DNA of 64,000 nt from an uncultured archaeon (GTDB taxonomy: Archaea > Nanobdellota > Nanobdellia > Pacearchaeales > GW2011-AR1). Both the position numbers and the translations under genes were made by a program. The notes beneath the pieces are model-generated. The model was not told the DNA's origin, did not search any database, and was given only the letters and a program-made list of their open reading frames with translations. Location of the stretch: positions 415 through 64,414 of the forward strand of contig CAIKWG010000003.1 in NCBI GenBank assembly GCA_903831045.1, read 5' to 3'. This document shows positions 20,383 through 62,375 of this stretch, one piece after another. How positions within the stretch are numbered: the first letter of the stretch is position 1; each line of letters opens with the position of its first letter.

Positions 20383-20404
20383 ATTCCTGATTTACTAAAA
20401 AAAC

Positions 20405-23215
<2,811 letters not shown>

Positions 23216-23229
23216 CCTAGTAAGGAAAA

Positions 23230-23248
23230 CCTCTCTACTACTTTTATC
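23230..23248 (-). other. 5' half of the 23S pre-rRNA processing helix
   Basis: Perfect 19-nt inverted repeat with 20364..20382. Followed by a small hairpin GTTTTCC-TTACTA-GGAAAAC. Confidence 0.7.
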
Positions 23249-23383
23249 ACTGAACATTAAGAATACCAGGATGCTCCCTAGTATTCAAATGAATATGTTC
23301 TCAAATAGATCCCGAAAACTTTTCGGAACCTGTTTTTCACATCTGAAAATTTTCAGATTTTTTTGTGAATATGATAGTGATGT

Positions 23384-23629
23384 TTAATATTCGATGATTT
23401 CTACTTTCTTATCGAGGTAATGTTCCATTCCGTGTTGAACTGTCTTTATATAATGTGAGTATGAATCTAAATAATCTGTTCCTTCTGATAAAATGTTCAT
23501 CCTTAATTTTCCTTTAATTTCATCTGAAATTTCAAATCTAATAACTTTGACTTTTTCATTTCCAATTTCATCTACTTCTAATCTTCCTTCTGATTTTCCG
23601 TCAATTATTATTTCTAAATTTTTTTTCAT
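23384..23629 (-). CDS. Hypothetical 81-aa protein encoded inside the 16S-23S spacer (between tRNA-Ala and 23S)
   Basis: Clean ATG-to-TAA ORF. Its AT-rich, Lys/Glu/Ile-rich composition matches the other CDSs and not the rRNA. A weak AGGA lies upstream. Confidence 0.5.
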   Translation of the reverse strand: MKKNLEIIIDGKSEGRLEVDEIGNEKVKVIRFEISDEIKGKLRMNILSEGTDYLDSYSHYIKTVQHGMEHYLDKKVEIIEY

Positions 23630-23665
23630 TTTGTTTTTCCTTTAATTTAATTAGAAAAAATTCAA

Positions 23666-23736
23666 TGGACCCGCCGAGAATCGAACTCGGATCTCATGCG
23701 TGCAAGGCAAGTGTTCTACCATTGGACTACGGGCCC
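23666..23736 (-). tRNA. tRNA-Ala (anticodon UGC) in the rRNA spacer
   Basis: Acceptor GGGCCCG/CGGGTCC including the G3:U70 Ala identity pair. Anticodon loop CTTGCAC. T-arm CCGAG-TTCGATT-CTCGG. Confidence 0.85.
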
Positions 23737-23841
23737 ATAACGCCTTCGAGCGTCCATAAAAAAAGCCCGTGGCCTTATATAATTTTTTCTAATAAGATGA
23801 GTATGTAGAAACAGAGTCATAACGAACATTGTAAAAATATT

Positions 23842-25289
23842 AGGAGGTGATCCATCTGCAGGTTCCCCTACAGATACCTTGTGACGACTTAACCTACCTC
23901 ATCATGCTAAGGTTCTCCTCATAAGAGTTTCACCATAGTATAACTCGGTTGGTTTGACGGGCAGTGTGTGCAAGAGACAGTGACATATTCACCGGACGTT
24001 GATAACATCCGATTACTACGAATTCCAGTGTCATGAAGCTGAGTTACAAGCTTCAATCTAGACTAAGATAGACTTTAAGAGATTGGCTTCACCTTTCGGT
24101 GTTGCATCCCATTGTATCTACCATTGACGCGCGCGTGTTGCCCAGGGGATTAGGGCTGTACTCACCTAACGTAGCCCGTACTTTCATCCTGGTTACCCAG
24201 GCAATCTGTATATTGTACACTTAGTAAATATACACACGGGTCTTGTCTGTTACCTGATTTAACAGGTCACCTCACGGCACAGACTGACGTCGGCCATGCA
24301 ACTCCGCTCAGCGTGTCAGGTAAGCCCTTTAGACTGACCTTCATCCTGCTGTCGCTCCTGGTGAGGTTCACGGTGTGGAATCTAATTGAACCGCACGCGT
24401 CACTCGTTGTAGTGTCTCCCCGCCAATTCCTTTAAGTTTCGGCCTTGCGACTATACTTCCCAGGTAGCACACTCTCCGGCTTCCCTTCAGCACCAATACC
24501 TCTCGAAGAGGTACTAATGTTTAGTGTGCAGTGTTTACTGCTAGGACTACACGGGTATCTAATCCGTTTTGCGCCCCTAGCCTTCATCCCTTACTGTCAG
24601 AACTGTTCTCGGAAGATGCCTTCGCTATTGTGAGTCCGTTTAAGATTAACGCATTTTACCGCTACTTTAAACGTACTTCTTCCGTCTACCAGTCTCTAGC
24701 TTGGTAGTACTTCCCGCGCGCCCTACATTTGAGATATAGGATTTCACAAGAAACTTATCAAGCAAGCTACGGATGTTTTAGACCCAATAAAAATGGCTGC
24801 GACTTGGACCGCGGGTATTACCGCGGCGGCTGGCACCCGTCTTACCCAGTCCTTATTCGCCAAACTTTTTACATTTGGCAAAAGCATTCCATATTGGAAC
24901 GCACTTTGACTCAAACTGTCACACTTTCGTGTATTGCAGATGATTCCTAACTGCTGCACCCCGTAGGGCTGGGAATAGTGTCTAAGATTCCCTCTCAGGG
25001 CCTCTCCGCTAAGAGCCCTTACGGATCATCGGCTTGGTGGGCTATTACCCCGCCAACAACCTAATCCGCCGCAGCCCCATCCTTAAGCGCGAGTTTGAGA
25101 GATAAGTCATTCCAGGGCATATCTCCTATCAAGCGTTAACCTCAGTTTCCCGAGGATATTCTTGACTTAAGGGCAGGTTAGCTACGTGTTACTGAGCAGT
25201 TCGCCTTCTCACTTTCGAAAAAGAAAGAAAAACTTGCATGTCTAAGCGCAAGTCAAAGAGCCGCAGCCGCCAGCAGGATCAACTGGAAT
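23842..25289 (-). rRNA. rrs: 16S ribosomal RNA (about 1.45 kb)
   Basis: The reverse complement starts ATTCCAGTTGATCCTGCTGG and ends GGGGAACCTGCAGATGGATCACCTCCT. It contains GTGCCAGCCGCCGCGGTAATACC. Confidence 0.95.
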
Positions 25290-25669: not shown

Positions 25670-25903
25670 ATGACAGACGCAAATTATATTCAACAGCGAA
25701 TGAATGAGATACAACAGGACCAGAGTTTCTCGTCGGTATTGGGTCAAATTCTTTCAGGAAAAGCAGGTTACAAACCTGTTATTGAAATGAAAAAGATTCC
25801 CATCAAGTGCAAACAATGTGGACTCATACTCGAAGAACATATGAAATTCTGTTGGGAATGTGGAACAAAGATTGAGAAACCCGAGAAAGCAAATCAGCCA
25901 TAA
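25670..25903 (+). CDS. Zinc-ribbon protein, unknown function
   Basis: C-terminal CKQC...CWEC motif. 77 aa. Confidence 0.45.
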   Translation: MTDANYIQQRMNEIQQDQSFSSVLGQILSGKAGYKPVIEMKKIPIKCKQCGLILEEHMKFCWECGTKIEKPEKANQP

Positions 25904-26349
25904 ACTCTTTTTCTAGTTTCATCAAGAGATAATTTTTTAGGATAATCTAATTTCATAACATTCTTAACATTTCCCTCAACATCAATTTCCCAAATTGGAT
26001 AGCCTTTAGAAAAGATAGCTTCAGCCTCTCCAAAAACTCCAAGCCCCCACATTCCATCTTCAAAAGGTAGAAATATTCCTGCATTCATTTTAGGAAGAAC
26101 AATATCAAAATAATATTTCATTCCGTTTCCAAGTTCTTCTTTCCAAATTTTATAATTCTCTTGATGATGAAGTTGATTTGGATTTTCTAGATAATATTCT
26201 GGAAATTCTTTTTTAATTATTTCCGCAAGTTCTCTTTCCTTATCGGTGTTGTAGAAATTAACAGGATGTCCAAAATAGATTGAAGGATATTTTATCAAAG
26301 ATTCAGTTAAAGCAATTCTCTCTTTTATTTTATCAGAATGTTGTTTCAT
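25894..26349 (-). CDS. Hypothetical protein, last gene of the paralog-array operon; possibly nucleoside 2-deoxyribosyltransferase-like fold
   Basis: 151 aa with a 1-nt junction to the array. IYFGHPV...NAGIFLPFEDGMWGLGVFGEAEAIFSKGYPIWEI loosely resembles NDT/DUF4406-type Rossmann proteins. Low certainty. Confidence 0.45.
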   Translation of the reverse strand: MKQHSDKIKERIALTESLIKYPSIYFGHPVNFYNTDKERELAEIIKKEFPEYYLENPNQLHHQENYKIWKEELGNGMKYYFDIVLPKMNAGIFLPFEDGMWGLGVFGEAEAIFSKGYPIWEIDVEGNVKNVMKLDYPKKLSLDETRKRVYG

Positions 26350-26350
26350 T

Positions 26351-26650
26351 TTATTTTTTTAAGTAGGCTGTAACAGTTATTAGTTCTTTACTGTTATCCC
26401 ATCCTCCTCTTAAAGGCATTCCATATTGTCTATAAGAAACCCTTTCATGGGCTTCAGCTACAAATAAATAATCTACTCCTAAAGATTCCATCTTGTTTGC
26501 ATGGATTTCAATTCCTAATTCGTCAATTGTTTCTGTTCCAAAATGAATTAAATCTCTAGGGTTAACTTCAATTTCTGTGGGAATAATTTTATCTTCTACT
26601 ACTTTTGCTTCAAGAAAACTTTTTTTATCTCTAACTAAATATTTTATCAT
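26351..26650 (-). CDS. Array paralog 5 of an unrecognised ~100-aa family
   Basis: Shares MIKYLVR..FLEA, DLIHFGTE, GVDYLF and TAYLKK with its four neighbours. Confidence 0.7.
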   Translation of the reverse strand: MIKYLVRDKKSFLEAKVVEDKIIPTEIEVNPRDLIHFGTETIDELGIEIHANKMESLGVDYLFVAEAHERVSYRQYGMPLRGGWDNSKELITVTAYLKK

Positions 26651-26651
26651 T

Positions 26652-26966
26652 TTATTTTTTTAGATATTCACTCTTATGTTTCTTTTTTAGATAAGCTGTT
26701 ATGTCCCTGATTGTTTCTGAACGTGTTCCACATGGTCCAACTGAATAAATTATTTTTTCATGTTCTCCGGAAAAGAATAGATAGTCTATCCCTTTTTCTT
26801 CCATTTCTTTTGCATACTCTTCAAGATTATTATCATTAACCAAATCAGTTCCAAAATGGACTAACTCTTGAGGATTAATTTCCACTTTTGTTGGATGCAT
26901 GAGACATGCAAAATATTCACATTCCAAAAAATTTCCTTTTTCTCCTCGTACTAAATATTTTATCAT
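26652..26966 (-). CDS. Array paralog 4
   Basis: MIKYLVRGEKGNFLE..ELVHFGTD..GIDYLF..ITAYLKK, plus a short KHKSEYLKK tail. Confidence 0.7.
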   Translation of the reverse strand: MIKYLVRGEKGNFLECEYFACLMHPTKVEINPQELVHFGTDLVNDNNLEEYAKEMEEKGIDYLFFSGEHEKIIYSVGPCGTRSETIRDITAYLKKKHKSEYLKK

Positions 26967-26967
26967 T

Positions 26968-27300
26968 TTATTTTTTTAAGTAAGAAGTTACTCCTCTTAT
27001 GCTTTCTGATTGTAAAAAATCTTTAGGAACACTATATTCTGGATCATTGCATTTTTCTACTTTATGTTCAAAACTTCTAGAATATTCAGAAAGAAGAATA
27101 TAATCCACTCCCTGGGTTTTCATATTCTCTGAGTAAGCATATAAATCCCAACCATTGGTAATAATATCAGAACCAAAATGAACTAAATCTCTCGGATTAA
27201 CTTCAATTTTTGTAGGACTTATTATTACTCTTTCAGCACTATTTTCTACTATAGCCTCCAAAAAATTTCCCTTTTCTCCTCTAACTAAATATTTTATCAT
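26968..27300 (-). CDS. Array paralog 3
   Basis: MIKYLVRGEKGNFLEA..DLVHFGSD..GVDYIL..VTSYLKK. Confidence 0.7.
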   Translation of the reverse strand: MIKYLVRGEKGNFLEAIVENSAERVIISPTKIEVNPRDLVHFGSDIITNGWDLYAYSENMKTQGVDYILLSEYSRSFEHKVEKCNDPEYSVPKDFLQSESIRGVTSYLKK

Positions 27301-27301
27301 T

Positions 27302-27604
27302 TTATTTTTTTAAGTAGGCTGTTACCGCTCTAAGCTCTTTACTAGATATCCAGCTTCCTTCAACAAATCCTAATTGTTTATATGAAACCTTTTCATGAAT
27401 AGGAGAAAGAAATAGATAATCTACTCCTAAATTTTCCATTTTTGTAGCATATGCTTTTATATCTGAATCCTTTATTACTTCTGTCCCAAAATGTAGTAAA
27501 TCTTGTAGACTAACTTCATTTCCTGTAGGTACAAATTTAGGTCCATTTTCAAGGTTAGCTTCTAAAAAGTTTTTTTTATTTCCACGTATTAAATATTTTA
27601 TCAT
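27302..27604 (-). CDS. Array paralog 2
   Basis: MIKYLIRGNKKNFLEA..DLLHFGTE..GVDYLF..VTAYLKK. Confidence 0.7.
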   Translation of the reverse strand: MIKYLIRGNKKNFLEANLENGPKFVPTGNEVSLQDLLHFGTEVIKDSDIKAYATKMENLGVDYLFLSPIHEKVSYKQLGFVEGSWISSKELRAVTAYLKK

Positions 27605-27605
27605 T

Positions 27606-27929
27606 TTAATAAAAATTCTTCTGAATGTAAGAAGTTACCGCTACCATAGTTTTAGAAGTGAGTGATGAACCATTGTAAACCTTATGTTGCATATTGTTTA
27701 CTAACTCTTCATTTGGAGAAACAAATAGATAATCTACTCCTTCTTTCTCCATTTTTTCTGAGTATTTTTTTAAATCAGAACTATTAATTATGTCCGTTCC
27801 AAAATGGAATAAATCTCCAGTTTGAAAACAACATTTATTCTCCAGAGGAATAAACTTATTCTCTTCTAATTTAGCTTCCAAAAAAGCTCCTTTTCCAAAT
27901 CCATTTTTACTTCTAACTAAATACTTCAT
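27606..27929 (-). CDS. Array paralog 1 (most divergent)
   Basis: MKYLVRS..AFLEA..DLFHFGTD..GVDYLF..VTSYIQK. Confidence 0.7.
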   Translation of the reverse strand: MKYLVRSKNGFGKGAFLEAKLEENKFIPLENKCCFQTGDLFHFGTDIINSSDLKKYSEKMEKEGVDYLFVSPNEELVNNMQHKVYNGSSLTSKTMVAVTSYIQKNFY

Positions 27930-27981
27930 AATTTCATTTAATCCAGAACCTTTTTAAGCATTTATGTAAGAAAAAATATAT

Positions 27982-28791
27982 TTAGTAATCTTCTGAATCT
28001 TCTTCGCCAGAAGTCCACCAATCTAGTTCAGGGATGTCTGCTTCTATTCCTCTATTCTTGCAATAGCCCTTAGCTAAAAGATAATAAATTAATCCAATAC
28101 TCTTTGGACTTTTATTGTTTCCAATTATAATTTGATCAACGCCGTGTGCAAAGTTATTTGTTCCACAAATCATTAGAACTTTTTTCTTTACATCTAGAGT
28201 ATCTTTCAAAGCATTTTTTTCAAGCCAATGGTCTGTAATAATTGTTAATTCATGTTCAAAGAAATTTTCTAAGTTAGTATTTGTTAAAATTCCTGCAGGA
28301 TATTTCTTTGTGAAAACTCTAATTCCAGTTAATTCGCTGAACTTCTTTGCAACATTCCAAGCAGATTGTCTTCTACAAACTAAAATAACATCTTCAGGTG
28401 CAAATTTAGAAAGATATGCAATTCCTTCTTTTAATTTTTCATCAATTAAATCTGTATTAAAAATTGCTAATCCATCCGCTCTTCTTCTATAAACAAAAGG
28501 TTTCATATCTGGAGTCACAACTCGTGTTCCAAGATAAATTCCTGTCTTAACATAATCATCAAGAGGTACAAGCATATCTGCTTTCTTCTTTGCTTTAATT
28601 TCTTCCTTAAGAGCTTCAGTGTCAACTCCACCTTCAACTTTTTCCTTTAATTTTTCAAGTTTTTCTTGAATCTTTTTCTTTTTCTCTGTTTTTGTTGCTT
28701 CAAGAGATTCTGCCTCAGCAGCTTTTACTAATGCTTCGCCAGATAATTCTCCATCAGGAGTAGCTTTAATCTCTTCTTTCTTCTTTGCCAT
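27982..28791 (-). CDS. rps2: 30S ribosomal protein S2 (uS2) with a ~70-aa Lys/Glu-rich N-terminal extension
   Basis: Core LVPLDDYVKTGIYLGTRVVTPDMKPFVYRRRADGLAIFN... is canonical uS2. The start is taken at MAKKKEE (28791) because a TATA box lies about 26 nt upstream. Confidence 0.85.
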   Translation of the reverse strand: MAKKKEEIKATPDGELSGEALVKAAEAESLEATKTEKKKKIQEKLEKLKEKVEGGVDTEALKEEIKAKKKADMLVPLDDYVKTGIYLGTRVVTPDMKPFVYRRRADGLAIFNTDLIDEKLKEGIAYLSKFAPEDVILVCRRQSAWNVAKKFSELTGIRVFTKKYPAGILTNTNLENFFEHELTIITDHWLEKNALKDTLDVKKKVLMICGTNNFAHGVDQIIIGNNKSPKSIGLIYYLLAKGYCKNRGIEADIPELDWWTSGEEDSEDY

Positions 28792-28810
28792 ATTCATTAT
28801 CAATAAAATT

Positions 28811-28823
28811 AGTTTATAAAGAT
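28811..28823 (-). promoter_or_regulatory. TATA box (CTTTATAAACT) for rps2 and the downstream array
   Basis: Centred about 26 nt upstream of the ATG at 28791. This excludes the ORF-track start at 28836. Confidence 0.45.
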
Positions 28824-28874
28824 TGTGATGGACCAAACCAAAAGATTTATTTATTTCTCAATTAAGCTTAAATT

Positions 28875-29243
28875 ATGGGAAAAGAAGAATTAAAAGAACT
28901 TATGGGAGAATTTTGGATAAATCTTAAACGGGATTCTAAGACAAATTACATCATCTGTCCAAATATGAACTGTGATGGATTTTCCAAAGATAATTTACAA
29001 TGTACTTCTTCTGGAACCTATGTTCCAGCTTGTCCAGAAAAGGACAAGGGTTTTAGAGTTTTGCATTGCCATTGGGGTCATCCAACCAAGCTCCCTCTTG
29101 ATGAATGTGAATGGTGCAGAGTTGATTGTCGTGAGGATAATTGCCATTCTTCAAATTTCAATTTAATGAGTGGAAAATATTCAAAAATACCTCTTGAATT
29201 ATATGACGAATTTTTGGAAAAAGAATTTGTTAGTAAATTATAA
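28875..29243 (+). CDS. Cys/His-rich hypothetical protein (putative metal-binding)
   Basis: 122 aa with 12 Cys, including CPNMNC, CHWGH and CEWCRVDCREDNC. It is the only plus-strand gene between eno and rps2. Confidence 0.45.
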   Translation: MGKEELKELMGEFWINLKRDSKTNYIICPNMNCDGFSKDNLQCTSSGTYVPACPEKDKGFRVLHCHWGHPTKLPLDECEWCRVDCREDNCHSSNFNLMSGKYSKIPLELYDEFLEKEFVSKL

Positions 29244-59405: not shown

Positions 59406-62375
59406 TTACTTTCTTTTCTTTTTAGAATCAGAAGTTTTATGCTTTGCTTTTTTCTTTTTATCTATTACAAAGATGTAATAGATTATTGCAACGATAACCA
59501 AAGCAATAACCAAATTAACCCAAGTAAATCCAGATAATTGAACCTGTGCAGGACAAGCAATTGTATTTTGTCCAATCTTACAATTTGAACTACTGTTTGT
59601 TGGATCATAATACCATTTTCCATCTGACCATAGAACGTGGTCTCCTGTTCCTGGATTAGTTGCATGACCAACATTTGTTACATCCCAAAACATTGTCGCA
59701 TTCCAAGTATAACTTAAGAATCCATCATTACAATTATCCCCACTCTTATCTTCTAGGAAATTACAACTTCCAACTCCAAGAGTATTAACACTTGGCCCAC
59801 ATACCCCTTCAGCCCAAACGCAAGTACATTCCACACCCGGAGTACTACAATTAATTGTTTCAACAACTTGGCTTCTATTTGCTACACTACAAATATCCTG
59901 TGTACATTGACCAGAATCTTCATAATCTGAACAAACTTTTCCATCTGTTCTAAACAATTCACAGGTCACAGTGTCTTCAACAAATACTTCTAAAATATCA
60001 TCATTTTTGAAAGATTTACTTTGAGTGTCATACCCAATTATAAAGTAGAATTCATAATTTTTATCTGCATCATCTGTAGCAGCGTCTAAAAATGTTTGAT
60101 AGCTAGTAGTGAATGTTCCAACAGCTGTTCCATCTGATTGTATTGTTGCAGTTATGGTGGTTATATTATCATCAAACACTATATCTTTTTCTTTAATGTT
60201 TATACTTAATGTTGCACCTTCTACTGGATTAGTAATTCCAGAAATATGGATTTTGAATGTTGTAACATTTCCATTAACTAAAGTATAATTATCTATCCAT
60301 AAAGTTCCTACTGAGTTTCTCCATTCTCCTGAAGCAGTTGTAATATCCATTTCTATTTCTGTTTGACAAATAGAACTACATCCATCACCATTAGCTATGT
60401 TTCCATCATCACAGGCTTCTCCCGTGTCTAATATGGAATTTCCACAAACTTCTAATTGGCAGGTTGCATTACATCCATCTCCTCCAATTAAATTTCCATC
60501 ATCGCAGGTTTCTCCACTTTCAATTATAGTATTATTACAAATAGGATTAGGGGTTTCAACCTGACAAATAGAACTACATCCATCATTGTTAACTAAATTT
60601 CCATCATCGCAACCTTCTCCATCCTCTTTTGCTCCATTTCCACAAACAGCTGCAGGGGTCATTGTAACTAATAGTTCGTCTGAAAAAGAAGTAGTTATTC
60701 CATTGATAGTTAATGCTTTAATGATAAACTTAAGAGGGTCTCCTTCTAAGAAATCTCTACCTAAATCCATTTTTTCTTTATTTACTATAAATGTAATCCC
60801 TGTGCTTCCACTGCTAACAGTTCCAGTTATAGTCTCAATAGGATCATCTCCTCCAATAGCATCTTTTTCATAAATATTAAAACTAGCAGGTAAATTGTCA
60901 CAACCAACAATTCCACTAATAGTTGCTGTTGAACTAGCAGAAAATCCTTCTGCAAAAGTAAGAGAATCAGGGGACCAAGTCATAGTAGCCCCATTAATAT
61001 TGCAAACAGAACTTTCATTCTGGCAATTAAGGTCACATCCATCCCCATTAACATAATTTCCATCATCACATTCTTCTCCTTCTTCAGTGATATAATTTCC
61101 ACAGGTACTCCCAATAGGAATCATTGTAACTGCTAATTCGTCTGAGAAAGATTTAGTTGCACTTCCAACTTGTAATGTTTTAACAATAAATTCAAGAGGA
61201 TAATCTTCTGCATCTTTTCCAGCATTAACTTTTGTGCTATCTACAGTAAAAGAAACACTAGCTCCACCATTGTTAACATTAGTTCCAGTTAAAGTTTCAA
61301 TTGGATCATCTCCTCCAACAGCATCTTTTTCATAAATTTGAAAACTAGTGGATAATCCTGTACAACCAATCATCCCACTAATTGTTGCTGTTGAACTAGC
61401 AGTAAGTCCTTCGTTAAAGGTAAGAGAATTAGGAGACCAAGTCATAGTAGCACCACTAAGGTCACAAACAACCAAGTCTTGAGGCTTTATACTCACATTC
61501 ATCCACTGTGAAAAATCTCCTCTAATTTCAAGTGTTTCATTAGTGTACTCTGAAGTTGCATAATCTAAATATAATGTAGCTCTTGGAGTGAATAAGGTGT
61601 AATTTGTAACAGAACTAATATCCGATTTTGAAATAACCCAATTAGCGATTATTTCTCCTCCAGTTCGAACAGTTGTGGTATTCTGCCAGATAGAATTTAC
61701 TCCGTTATAAATATCAACTCGTACTTGTCTTCCGTCCCCATTTCTTATTCCCGTTATTTTAACATTTCCTGAAAGACTACTAGCTGGAAAAGCACTTGAA
61801 TCAAATGTTAGATGTTCGGTTGGTTCATTAGTGTATTCTGTAAATAACCCTTCATCCCACCAACTAGCAGTTGCGGAATCAAATGTAGGAAGACAATCAT
61901 AAGCACAGTTTGTATGATTTTCTCCATTAAGGCAAGCCCCGTCATGATTACATCCAGTAAGAGTCAAAGAATTAGCACTAAGCTTATCGATAGATATTGC
62001 AGCCACCTTAAATCTAAATGAAAGTACTTTATTTATTGCAGTAGCGGGTACGGTCCAGGTTCTTTCAAAATTCTGTGAGGTTGCTGTTCCAGATATATCA
62101 CAAGAAGAATTGAACGCTGCTCCACTTGATTCAATTATATCAATGCAATAAGCTTGACCATTAGTTGATTCAAATTCTGCGAGGCCAATGCTAATAGATA
62201 TTTTTACATTCTGTGTTGTTCCATCATTCTTCACAAACAAAGAAGTTTGATTCCAATTTCCAGTAATAGAATCTCCTGCTCCTGCACTTACAAAACCTAC
62301 TACCATTAAGAATAAAAATAGACTTCCAAAAACTAAACTAAAACTTTTACCCCTCATTTTACATTTAATTAACAT
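59406..62375 (-). CDS. Giant secreted Cys-rich-repeat adhesin-like protein with C-terminal TM plus Lys-rich tail (true start probably M7 at 62357)
   Basis: Four CGNG..E.CDDGN...GDGC...C repeats (Myxococcus-type/DUF4215-like). An internal ~154-aa duplication. The C-terminus ends ..GFTWVNLVIALVIVAIIYYIFVIDKKKKAKHK.... A TATA box at 62389..62397 is too close to the first ATG. Confidence 0.65.
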   Translation of the reverse strand: MLIKCKMRGKSFSLVFGSLFLFLMVVGFVSAGAGDSITGNWNQTSLFVKNDGTTQNVKISISIGLAEFESTNGQAYCIDIIESSGAAFNSSCDISGTATSQNFERTWTVPATAINKVLSFRFKVAAISIDKLSANSLTLTGCNHDGACLNGENHTNCAYDCLPTFDSATASWWDEGLFTEYTNEPTEHLTFDSSAFPASSLSGNVKITGIRNGDGRQVRVDIYNGVNSIWQNTTTVRTGGEIIANWVISKSDISSVTNYTLFTPRATLYLDYATSEYTNETLEIRGDFSQWMNVSIKPQDLVVCDLSGATMTWSPNSLTFNEGLTASSTATISGMIGCTGLSTSFQIYEKDAVGGDDPIETLTGTNVNNGGASVSFTVDSTKVNAGKDAEDYPLEFIVKTLQVGSATKSFSDELAVTMIPIGSTCGNYITEEGEECDDGNYVNGDGCDLNCQNESSVCNINGATMTWSPDSLTFAEGFSASSTATISGIVGCDNLPASFNIYEKDAIGGDDPIETITGTVSSGSTGITFIVNKEKMDLGRDFLEGDPLKFIIKALTINGITTSFSDELLVTMTPAAVCGNGAKEDGEGCDDGNLVNNDGCSSICQVETPNPICNNTIIESGETCDDGNLIGGDGCNATCQLEVCGNSILDTGEACDDGNIANGDGCSSICQTEIEMDITTASGEWRNSVGTLWIDNYTLVNGNVTTFKIHISGITNPVEGATLSINIKEKDIVFDDNITTITATIQSDGTAVGTFTTSYQTFLDAATDDADKNYEFYFIIGYDTQSKSFKNDDILEVFVEDTVTCELFRTDGKVCSDYEDSGQCTQDICSVANRSQVVETINCSTPGVECTCVWAEGVCGPSVNTLGVGSCNFLEDKSGDNCNDGFLSYTWNATMFWDVTNVGHATNPGTGDHVLWSDGKWYYDPTNSSSNCKIGQNTIACPAQVQLSGFTWVNLVIALVIVAIIYYIFVIDKKKKAKHKTSDSKKKRK
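60654..61469 (-). repeat. Internal tandem duplication within the 989-aa gene (two ~118-aa modules, aa 303-420 and 457-574)
   Basis: VCDLSGATMTWSPNSLTFNEGLTASSTATISGMIGC... versus VCNINGATMTWSPDSLTFAEGFSASSTATISGIVGC.... The similarity is also visible in the DNA. Confidence 0.8.

Follow-up and report, generated by a model that had tools for sequence, protein, structure and literature searches.

An orphan family of tandem small-protein genes downstream of rps2 in a DPANN archaeon

The stretch of DNA analysed here (the window; 64,000 nucleotides of contig CAIKWG010000003.1, assembly GCA_903831045.1, from an uncultured archaeon) carries, directly downstream of rps2, five tandem genes for related proteins of ~100 amino acids (aa), followed by a gene for a 151-aa protein of another family. 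This archaeon is a tiny symbiont of the DPANN group (Nanoarchaeota/Pacearchaeota-like), and the array is an operon specific to its lineage, encoding an orphan protein family. DPANN genomes are tiny, which makes a set of five paralogues a notable outlay. As to function, we tentatively favour, by analogy, a recombining repertoire of hairpin-display binders of the immunity, inhibitor or adaptor type, since the design of scaffold plus hairpin and the pattern in the population resemble such repertoires.

Array anatomy and orphan status

A preliminary description of the locus had reported five tandem, coupled open reading frames (ORFs) of 99–110 aa and a 151-aa gene, and the ORF list agrees with it exactly: the six genes follow one another on the minus strand and span 25894–27929. 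They are given below, followed by their flanks, with subtype letters that are explained in the next section and L numbers for loci from other samples; dN/dS is the ratio of nonsynonymous to synonymous substitution.

27606-27929, minus strand: copy 1, 107 aa, subtype C, hairpin ...VNNMQHKVYNGSSLTSK...; N-terminus MKYL, in line with other first-position copies; 54–65% identical to its orthologues in L091, L092 and L001
27302-27604, minus strand: copy 2, 100 aa, subtype D; the copy used for the AlphaFold model; L089 orthologue 78% identical
26968-27300, minus strand: copy 3, 110 aa, subtype A, longest hairpin (...CNDPEYSVPKDFLQSE...); L004 and L089 orthologues 83–84% identical, dN/dS 0.13–0.19
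26652-26966, minus strand: copy 4, 104 aa, subtype B with a short GPCGT hairpin; 62–77% identical to its orthologues in L092, L004 and L090
26351-26650, minus strand: copy 5, 99 aa, subtype D'; 58% identical to copy 2
25894-26349, minus strand: 151-aa gene, coupled to copy 5 via TAA-A-ATG; 10-nt overlap of its 3' end with the convergent zinc-ribbon gene
27982-28836, minus strand: rps2; bounds the variable slot upstream and is conserved (90–98% aa identity in relatives)
25670-25903, plus strand: zinc-ribbon gene, 77 aa, convergent, the conserved downstream flank of the slot; 95–99% identity in relatives
20396-25289: archaeal 16S-tRNAAla-23S operon, downstream of the array

Alignment of the five copies gave 21 invariant columns and displayed the same shared motifs that had been described from the sequence. 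Identity to copy 1 was 41–58%, pairwise protein identity among the five was 36–58%, and the rest of the 64-kb window contains no extra copy. Mildly acidic (median pI 5.8) and soluble, the proteins show no signal peptide or membrane segment in their sequences. A role as chromatin proteins was rejected on the basis of this pI (~5.8), and a secreted or surface location was rejected on the basis of the missing signal and membrane segments. The product of the flanking zinc-ribbon gene matched Pfam zinc-ribbon families with a best E of 4.5e-5, under their curated cut-offs.

Relatives of the small family proved to be very rare. A word-indexed profile search of 5.8 billion proteins returned 23 clusters at 90% identity, five of which were the window's own, and an exhaustive HMMER search with a 22-sequence profile against 1.84 billion representatives found only 31 clusters (50% identity) with E ≤ 1e-3. 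The named sources of these members were metagenome-assembled genomes of Pacearchaeota and Nanoarchaeota. The earlier impression that the family matches nothing known was borne out by profile searches and, as described below, by Foldseek. No significant match to Pfam-A, NCBIfam, PHROGs or PADLOC was obtained for the five window copies or for 39 members, the best library scores being scattered single matches to unrelated families with E of at least 0.00036, and a sequence-profile search of the PDB gave chance-level matches only. No viral association emerged from scans of IMG/VR viral contigs, in which no relative of the family was found. A pattern scan of metagenome DNA with the leader sequence of the array returned nine stretches, two of them real, and both of these loci had already been recovered. 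A description of neither the small family nor the 151-aa family was found in the literature. The ~100-aa family is real, orphan and new to every resource queried; its narrow distribution may limit its general importance.

Subtypes, gene ends and the array leader

The family is conserved in related genomes, where the same subtypes recur on independent contigs. Seven related contigs from other samples, which amount to six distinct loci, have flanks nearly like those of the window (rps2 and the zinc-ribbon gene at the identities listed above, enolase at ~90%). In the slot between rps2 and the zinc-ribbon gene, close relatives carry one to five copies of varying subtype and order; the context of L091 differs. 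The arrays, in gene order, are as follows.

Window: C-D-A-B-D'-151
L004 (and L112): B-A-151
L001/L002: 73aa-C-151
L089: D-87aa(unrelated)-A-151
L090: B-151
L092/L093: C-B, then directly the zinc-ribbon gene; no 151-aa gene
L091: one C copy, flanked by an unrelated 149-aa ORF and a convergent 80-aa ORF; both the 151-aa gene and the zinc-ribbon gene are missing

The identity matrix cleanly separates four or five ancient subtypes (A, B, C and D/D'), with 54–85% identity across genomes within a subtype (A 83–85%, B 62–77%, C 54–65%, D 78%) and 32–54% between subtypes. The segment between the motifs GVDYLF and TAYLKK, which is assigned below to a hairpin, serves as a subtype signature and is conserved between orthologues. 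Nei–Gojobori dN/dS between orthologues was 0.13–0.44 for the whole gene and 0.09–0.73 for the hairpin alone, which offers few sites, and the orthologues of each subtype are under purifying selection. This segment had been called hypervariable in the preliminary description. Among copies the scaffold is indeed conserved and the segment varies, but it is not hypervariable: between orthologues it is subtype-specific and conserved. The hairpin differences are an old divergence that is now maintained, with genomes differing in repertoire. That related genomes hold distinct sets of subtypes at a single locus amounts to a natural experiment; together with the fold and the design of scaffold plus hairpin described below, it makes function testable by binding screens.

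Diversity-generating retroelements (DGRs) are common in DPANN archaea and in bacteria of the candidate phyla radiation (CPR). Active hypervariation of the segment, by a DGR-like process or other targeted mutagenesis, would suit a segment that differs in each copy, but is barely tenable given the conservation of the hairpins between orthologues. The differences are indels and unrelated sequence, not adenine-specific substitutions, and neither a template/variable repeat pair nor inverted repeats occur in the window. The repeats of the array are paralogous gene segments and junctions only, with no template-repeat-like copy elsewhere in the 64 kb, although no search was aimed at a reverse transcriptase. 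An origin of the array in misassembly, or a non-coding nature of its ORFs, is likewise scarcely credible. Exact junction repeats (see below) could mislead a short-k-mer assembler on copy order, but each copy is unique at 36–58% aa identity, the same subtypes and multi-copy arrays occur on independent contigs from other samples, dN/dS between orthologues is well below 1, and the structure model is confident. The array is no assembly expansion, one of the possible refutations that had been raised; hypermutation and assembly artefact are both effectively excluded.

Unrelated helical ORFs lacking known relatives (ORFans) were observed in the slot downstream of rps2 in two relatives (L089 571-834, 87 aa; L001 5728-5949, 73 aa). 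The 87-aa gene sits inside the L089 array with TAA-A-ATG junctions, which indicates that the slot accepts foreign small genes.

A stop codon, one nucleotide and ATG had been reported at every junction of the window array, and five of five internal junctions indeed read TAA-A-ATG. The near-identical string of ~30 nt noted at three of these junctions was also recovered, here as a 31-nt string with three occurrences as compared with 0.00 in shuffled sequence.

27286-27316, plus strand: junction repeat, copy 2/copy 3, exact match to the 31-nt string
26952-26982, plus strand: junction repeat, copy 3/copy 4, exact match to the 31-nt string
26636-26666, plus strand: junction repeat, copy 4/copy 5, 2 mismatches to the 31-nt string

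At the two best junctions, the shared repeat extends to 75 nt at 89% identity. The coding ends also vary with position in the array. All seven first-position copies start MK(Y)L, and each of the seven internal ones has an additional codon, M-[I/V]-K; this rule is independent of subtype, B and D having been seen in both states. That the first codons follow array position and not subtype points to recombination at conserved gene ends. At the other end of the gene, the tail ...K[N/D]FY-stop is found in a type C gene (window copy 1) and in a type D gene (L089), the orthologues of which end ...YLKK-stop, and the YLKK end is duplicated in the C-terminal tail of copy 4, KKKHKSEYLKK, as if a second YLKK-stop gene end had left a scar. 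Homologous exchange with breakpoints within the conserved first and last codons would be the simplest reading of these patterns.

Expression of the array had been suspected to depend on the rps2 promoter or on the gap after rps2. That gap holds the following element.

27930-27981, minus strand: array leader, 52 nt, with a T6 run, a TATA-like box, an A/T box and a three-codon upstream ORF (uORF)

The T6 run lies just past the rps2 stop and is archaeal terminator-like. The TATA-like TTACATAAA at 27969-27961 and the A/T box CTTAAAAAGG at 27958-27949 would put transcription initiation at the coding start or slightly before it; the assignment of these elements as promoter and terminator follows the archaeal consensus. 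Conservation of the 40 nt preceding the first copy extends across the window and the six distinct related loci (seven contigs), whatever subtype comes first; the consensus is TTAyATAAATGyTTAAAAAGGTTTTnGATTAAATGAAATT-ATG. In L001, the leader is placed after the inserted 73-aa gene and not after rps2, so it travels with the array. Because of this conserved and travelling leader, the array is probably an operon of its own and not an extension of rps2, and the suspected dependence on rps2 is probably incorrect. The uORF, ATG-AAA-TTA-TGA (27937-27926, minus strand), has a stop that overlaps the ATG of the first array gene. Its position is kept in L001, L004 and L089–L092, where it stays in frame despite substitutions (GTG AGA TTA TGA in L091; ATG GAA TTA TGA in L001), and it may be a leaderless mini-ORF that feeds re-initiation.

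Predicted fold, the 151-aa protein and possible functions

For structure prediction of the small family, AlphaFold2 was run on copy 2 with the 22-sequence alignment, and the resulting model had a mean predicted local distance difference test score (pLDDT) of 89.7 and a predicted template-modelling (TM) score of 0.77. Four N-terminal beta-strands (b1, residues 3–7; b2, 13–19; b3, 23–31; b4, 36–45) are followed by one helix (46–58) and a long C-terminal beta-hairpin (b5, 63–78; b6, 84–99). From this order of elements (b-b-b-b-a-b-b), the 25–35 variable residues between GVDYLF and TAYLKK correspond to the distal part of the b5–b6 hairpin. Foldseek comparison of the model with the PDB gave nothing at E ≤ 0.001 or TM ≥ 0.5 (best E 0.14, TM 0.35), and the same was true of BFVD (best E 0.19, TM ≤ 0.39); the best PDB matches were GlnK/PII and ribosomal proteins at TM ~0.33–0.37. 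The family thus offers a confidently predicted fold unlike anything solved, and a clear design of scaffold plus putative specificity hairpin.

Conservation was mapped across 39 sequences. Mean top-residue frequency was 0.62–0.75 in the strands, 0.44 in b3 and 0.25 in the hairpin, and loops 8–12, 20–22 and 46–50 were, like the hairpin, variable and indel-rich. Differences among subtypes lie in the hairpin tip, 9–35 residues long, and in two loops; conservation covers the strands and the base of the hairpin. Throughout the family, R7 and Y97 alone are invariant, with E15 and T95 kept in at least 90% of sequences. Having so few family-wide invariant residues argues against catalysis, and the pattern fits a scaffold better than a catalytic site. 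It is very unlikely that the small proteins are enzymes or small-molecule- or nucleotide-binding proteins with subtypes of different ligand specificity. Conserved polar positions within the close group (R7, E15, H38, D42, D62, Y63, T95 and Y97) and predicted co-expression with a putative nucleotide-salvage enzyme speak for such a function. Distant members, however, replace H38, D42 and D62 with N/S/P, E/Y/H and E/A/H, respectively, the remaining R7, Y97, E15 and T95 are a small set for a catalytic site, and Foldseek returned no pocket-type fold match.

The 151-aa protein at the end of the array belongs to a separate family. Homologues form 79 clusters at 46–84% identity, with no Pfam domain in the region of this protein, and occur in 87 GTDB species of DPANN archaea (Woese-, Pace- and Nanoarchaeota) and CPR/Patescibacteria; distant relatives are present on 14 IMG/VR contigs. 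This is a second uncharacterised family, highly conserved and common to two ultrasmall radiations and some viral contigs. Its alignment contains many invariant polar residues, including E38, D98, E108 and R148, with E108 in a G-x-G-V-F-G-E-A-E segment. The AlphaFold model (pLDDT 95.3) is a three-layer alpha/beta fold, for which Foldseek gave weak but consistent matches to ThsB/TIR, DNPH1 and nucleoside 2-deoxyribosyltransferase (NDT) proteins (E 0.02–0.1, TM 0.40–0.45, probability 0.8–0.95). The NDT-like assignment loosely offered in the preliminary description can be retained as a weak resemblance at the level of fold, but not of profile. No Pfam match was seen at E ≤ 5 for 38 members, PF05014 included, nor any match in NCBIfam, PHROGs or PADLOC; a PDB sequence-profile search gave chance-level matches only, and hhalign of the family against a neighbouring PF05014-like cluster was not significant (probability 0.8%). 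Likeness to TIR/ThsB (Thoeris) is at the fold level only, with no PADLOC match and no effector-like neighbour in 66 analysed loci.

The resemblance to the NDT/DNPH1/TIR-ThsB superfamily extends beyond the three-layer fold to an N-terminal b-strand motif, IYFGHPV, as compared with IYLIHPV in neighbouring NDT-like genes, and, for NDT/DNPH1, to the invariant acidic E108, a candidate catalytic residue, and to gene neighbours in other DPANN archaea that include DeoC and an NDT-like gene. The E-values are weak, the TM scores low (0.40–0.45) and membership absent at the profile level. The recurrent DPANN neighbours of the 151-aa gene comprise DeoC, an NDT-like protein (PF05014, E 6e-5, under cut-off), a LigD 3'-phosphoesterase and a 470–550 aa ORFan. 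The last has no Pfam match, contains metallophosphoesterase-like motifs on our reading of its sequence, and often overlaps the start or stop of the 151-aa gene. No matches were obtained by tblastn of DeoC, the NDT-like protein, LigD_N or the 470-aa ORFan against the window. From its gene context, the 151-aa protein may reasonably be proposed to act in the salvage of (deoxy)nucleosides or nucleotides, and it may supply a missing step in DPANN/CPR nucleotide salvage.

The small proteins could be accessory, regulatory or specificity subunits of this NDT/DNPH1/TIR-like enzyme, each subtype tuning or inhibiting the enzyme or steering it towards another substrate. Coupling of the last small gene to the 151-aa gene through TAA-A-ATG in the window, L004, L001, L089 and L090 would agree with such an arrangement, as would the many invariant polar residues of the 151-aa protein, which are as in enzymes. 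We nevertheless consider it unlikely. The 151-aa gene is missing from the C-B array of a close relative (L092/L093), 0 of 80 fetched 151-aa loci of other species had a small-family gene within 8 kb, the distant small-family loci L003, L085, L088, L117 and L120 lack a 151-aa neighbour, and in other loci the 151-aa gene has another coupled partner, the 470–550 aa ORFan. The 151-aa family is therefore not an obligate or fixed partner of the small family, although the preliminary description had called it a partner. In six species, eno-rps2 lies within five genes upstream of the 151-aa gene, so the latter was probably already downstream of rps2 when the array came to lie between them in the window's lineage.

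Distant members of the small family are single-copy, and their surroundings are diverse:

P0103: 190 aa, its C-terminal extension unannotated; in a Pacearchaeote, flanked by an M50 peptidase and TYW1
P0022: adjoins an SNF2 helicase
P0114: adjoins a PIN/RHH (ribbon-helix-helix) pair
P0111: among membrane ORFans
P0108: ~39% identical, downstream of eno...rps2 in another lineage (rps2>85aa>72aa>P0108<LigD_N)

Profile searches with the neighbouring ORFans and with the C-terminal extension of P0103 gave nothing. Beside P0103, 13 small co-oriented ORFans were observed (L085 8053-12566, minus strand), only one of which had a Pfam match (ASCH); this run may be an integrated element.

Among the related DPANN loci that hold rps2, the small family is absent downstream of it, and one distant lineage keeps the position. 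The slot after rps2 recurs, with tandem expansion and coupling to the 151-aa gene confined to close relatives of the window; proximity to rps2 reflects a shared syntenic slot and is no sign of ribosomal function. A conserved cellular factor of the eno-rps2 neighbourhood, for example ribosome-, RNA- or translation-associated, that was duplicated and subfunctionalised in this lineage is an unlikely explanation too. It would accommodate the position of P0108, the adjacency of P0103 to TYW1, which flanks eno in L119, the purifying selection, and the presence of long-hairpin ribosomal proteins among the weak Foldseek top matches, albeit at TM ~0.35 or below. Against it stand the extreme rarity of the family (31 clusters in 1.84 billion proteins), its absence near rps2 in most related DPANN loci, the variation of copy number and composition among close relatives, the acidic-to-neutral character of the proteins, unlike most RNA- or ribosome-binding proteins, and the array's own leader.

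Under the favoured reading of a binder repertoire, the array would be transcribed from its own TATA-like leader, translated by termination–reinitiation across the TAA-A-ATG junctions and reshuffled by homologous recombination between near-identical gene ends. A common scaffold would display the subtype-specific hairpin, each subtype recognising a different partner molecule, and the proteins would by analogy act as immunity, inhibitor or adaptor proteins facing hosts, competitors or viruses. The 151-aa protein would be a nucleotide- or nucleoside-processing enzyme that was already in the neighbourhood, co-expressed with the array and not required by it. Rather doubtful is the fuller proposal, again by analogy, that hairpin-display binders of a new fold form a genome-specific immunity, anti-effector or adaptor repertoire by which an ultrasmall DPANN symbiont meets variable host, competitor or virus molecules, as the archaeal equivalent of the polyimmunity loci of bacteria, built from an unrelated family and wired to a nucleotide-processing enzyme. 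The molecular basis of interactions of DPANN archaea with hosts and viruses is largely unknown.

Several observations weigh against a binder repertoire. Nothing resembling a polymorphic toxin or defence gene lies nearby, the neighbours being rps2, the 151-aa gene and the zinc-ribbon gene, and no toxin, defence or immunity model matches; any partner, toxin or target of the small proteins is putative. Selection on orthologues is purifying, not diversifying. A conserved cellular role would also be in keeping with the distant members, which are single-copy and stand in unrelated, housekeeping-looking contexts (M50 peptidase/TYW1, SNF2 helicase, downstream of rps2). Instead of recombination, selection acting on the context of re-initiation could account for the position-specific 5' codons, and a cellular structural relative could exist, the fold comparison having covered the PDB and BFVD.

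Other features of the window were noted. A 122-aa Cys/His-rich ORF (28875-29243, plus strand) lies between rps2 and enolase on the opposite strand, with 72–78% identity in related loci and no Pfam match. Within the rRNA operon, an 81-aa ORF (23384-23629, minus strand) occupies the spacer between tRNA-Ala (23665-23737) and 23S rRNA (20396-23213); it has no Pfam match and two protein homologues of 63–69% identity in other metagenomes, and a 16S-23S spacer would be an unusual place for a protein gene. At 60356-61470, a 73-nt direct repeat occurs four times and a 190-nt one twice; these repeats are rich in Cys, Asp and Gly codons on the minus strand and probably encode repeats of a large secreted or surface protein.

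Comparison with known systems

In its architecture, the small-family model resembles PII/GlnK and ribosomal protein uS10, which are likewise small alpha+beta proteins with a long, functionally important hairpin or loop projecting from a compact core. The resemblance is limited to TM values of ~0.33–0.37 with E of at least 0.14, there is no sequence similarity to the small family, and the strand order b-b-b-b-a-b-b differs from the ferredoxin-like b-a-b-b-a-b.

At the level of gene organisation, shufflon- and cassette-type loci, such as type I restriction–modification hsdS inversion systems and integron cassette arrays, offer one comparison. As in these loci, conserved junctions flank variable modules, order and content differ among relatives, and unrelated small genes (the 87-aa gene of L089) stand within the array at a matching TAA-A-ATG junction. 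Unlike these loci, the array has no recombinase or integrase and no attC-like or inverted repeats, and each of its modules is a complete co-oriented gene, all of them predicted to be expressed together.

The best analogy is still that with binding- or immunity-type arrays, as the preliminary description had suggested, and in particular with the tandem polyimmunity arrays of polymorphic-toxin and contact-dependent inhibition (CDI)-type immunity genes, which were reportedly described by Zhang, Aravind and co-workers in 2012, and with orphan cdiI arrays. The array differs from these in that neither a toxin gene or domain nor a secretion gene or known immunity family lies nearby or could be detected, although toxins acting in trans are possible, in that single-copy members occur in housekeeping-like contexts, and in its DPANN host and the conserved nucleotide-enzyme-like gene that closes the operon. 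It agrees with them as a tandem run of heterogeneous paralogues of one small cytoplasmic family, with a shared scaffold, divergent segments that may serve in recognition, purifying selection within each type, conserved gene ends that could allow recombination, and a repertoire that varies between related genomes.

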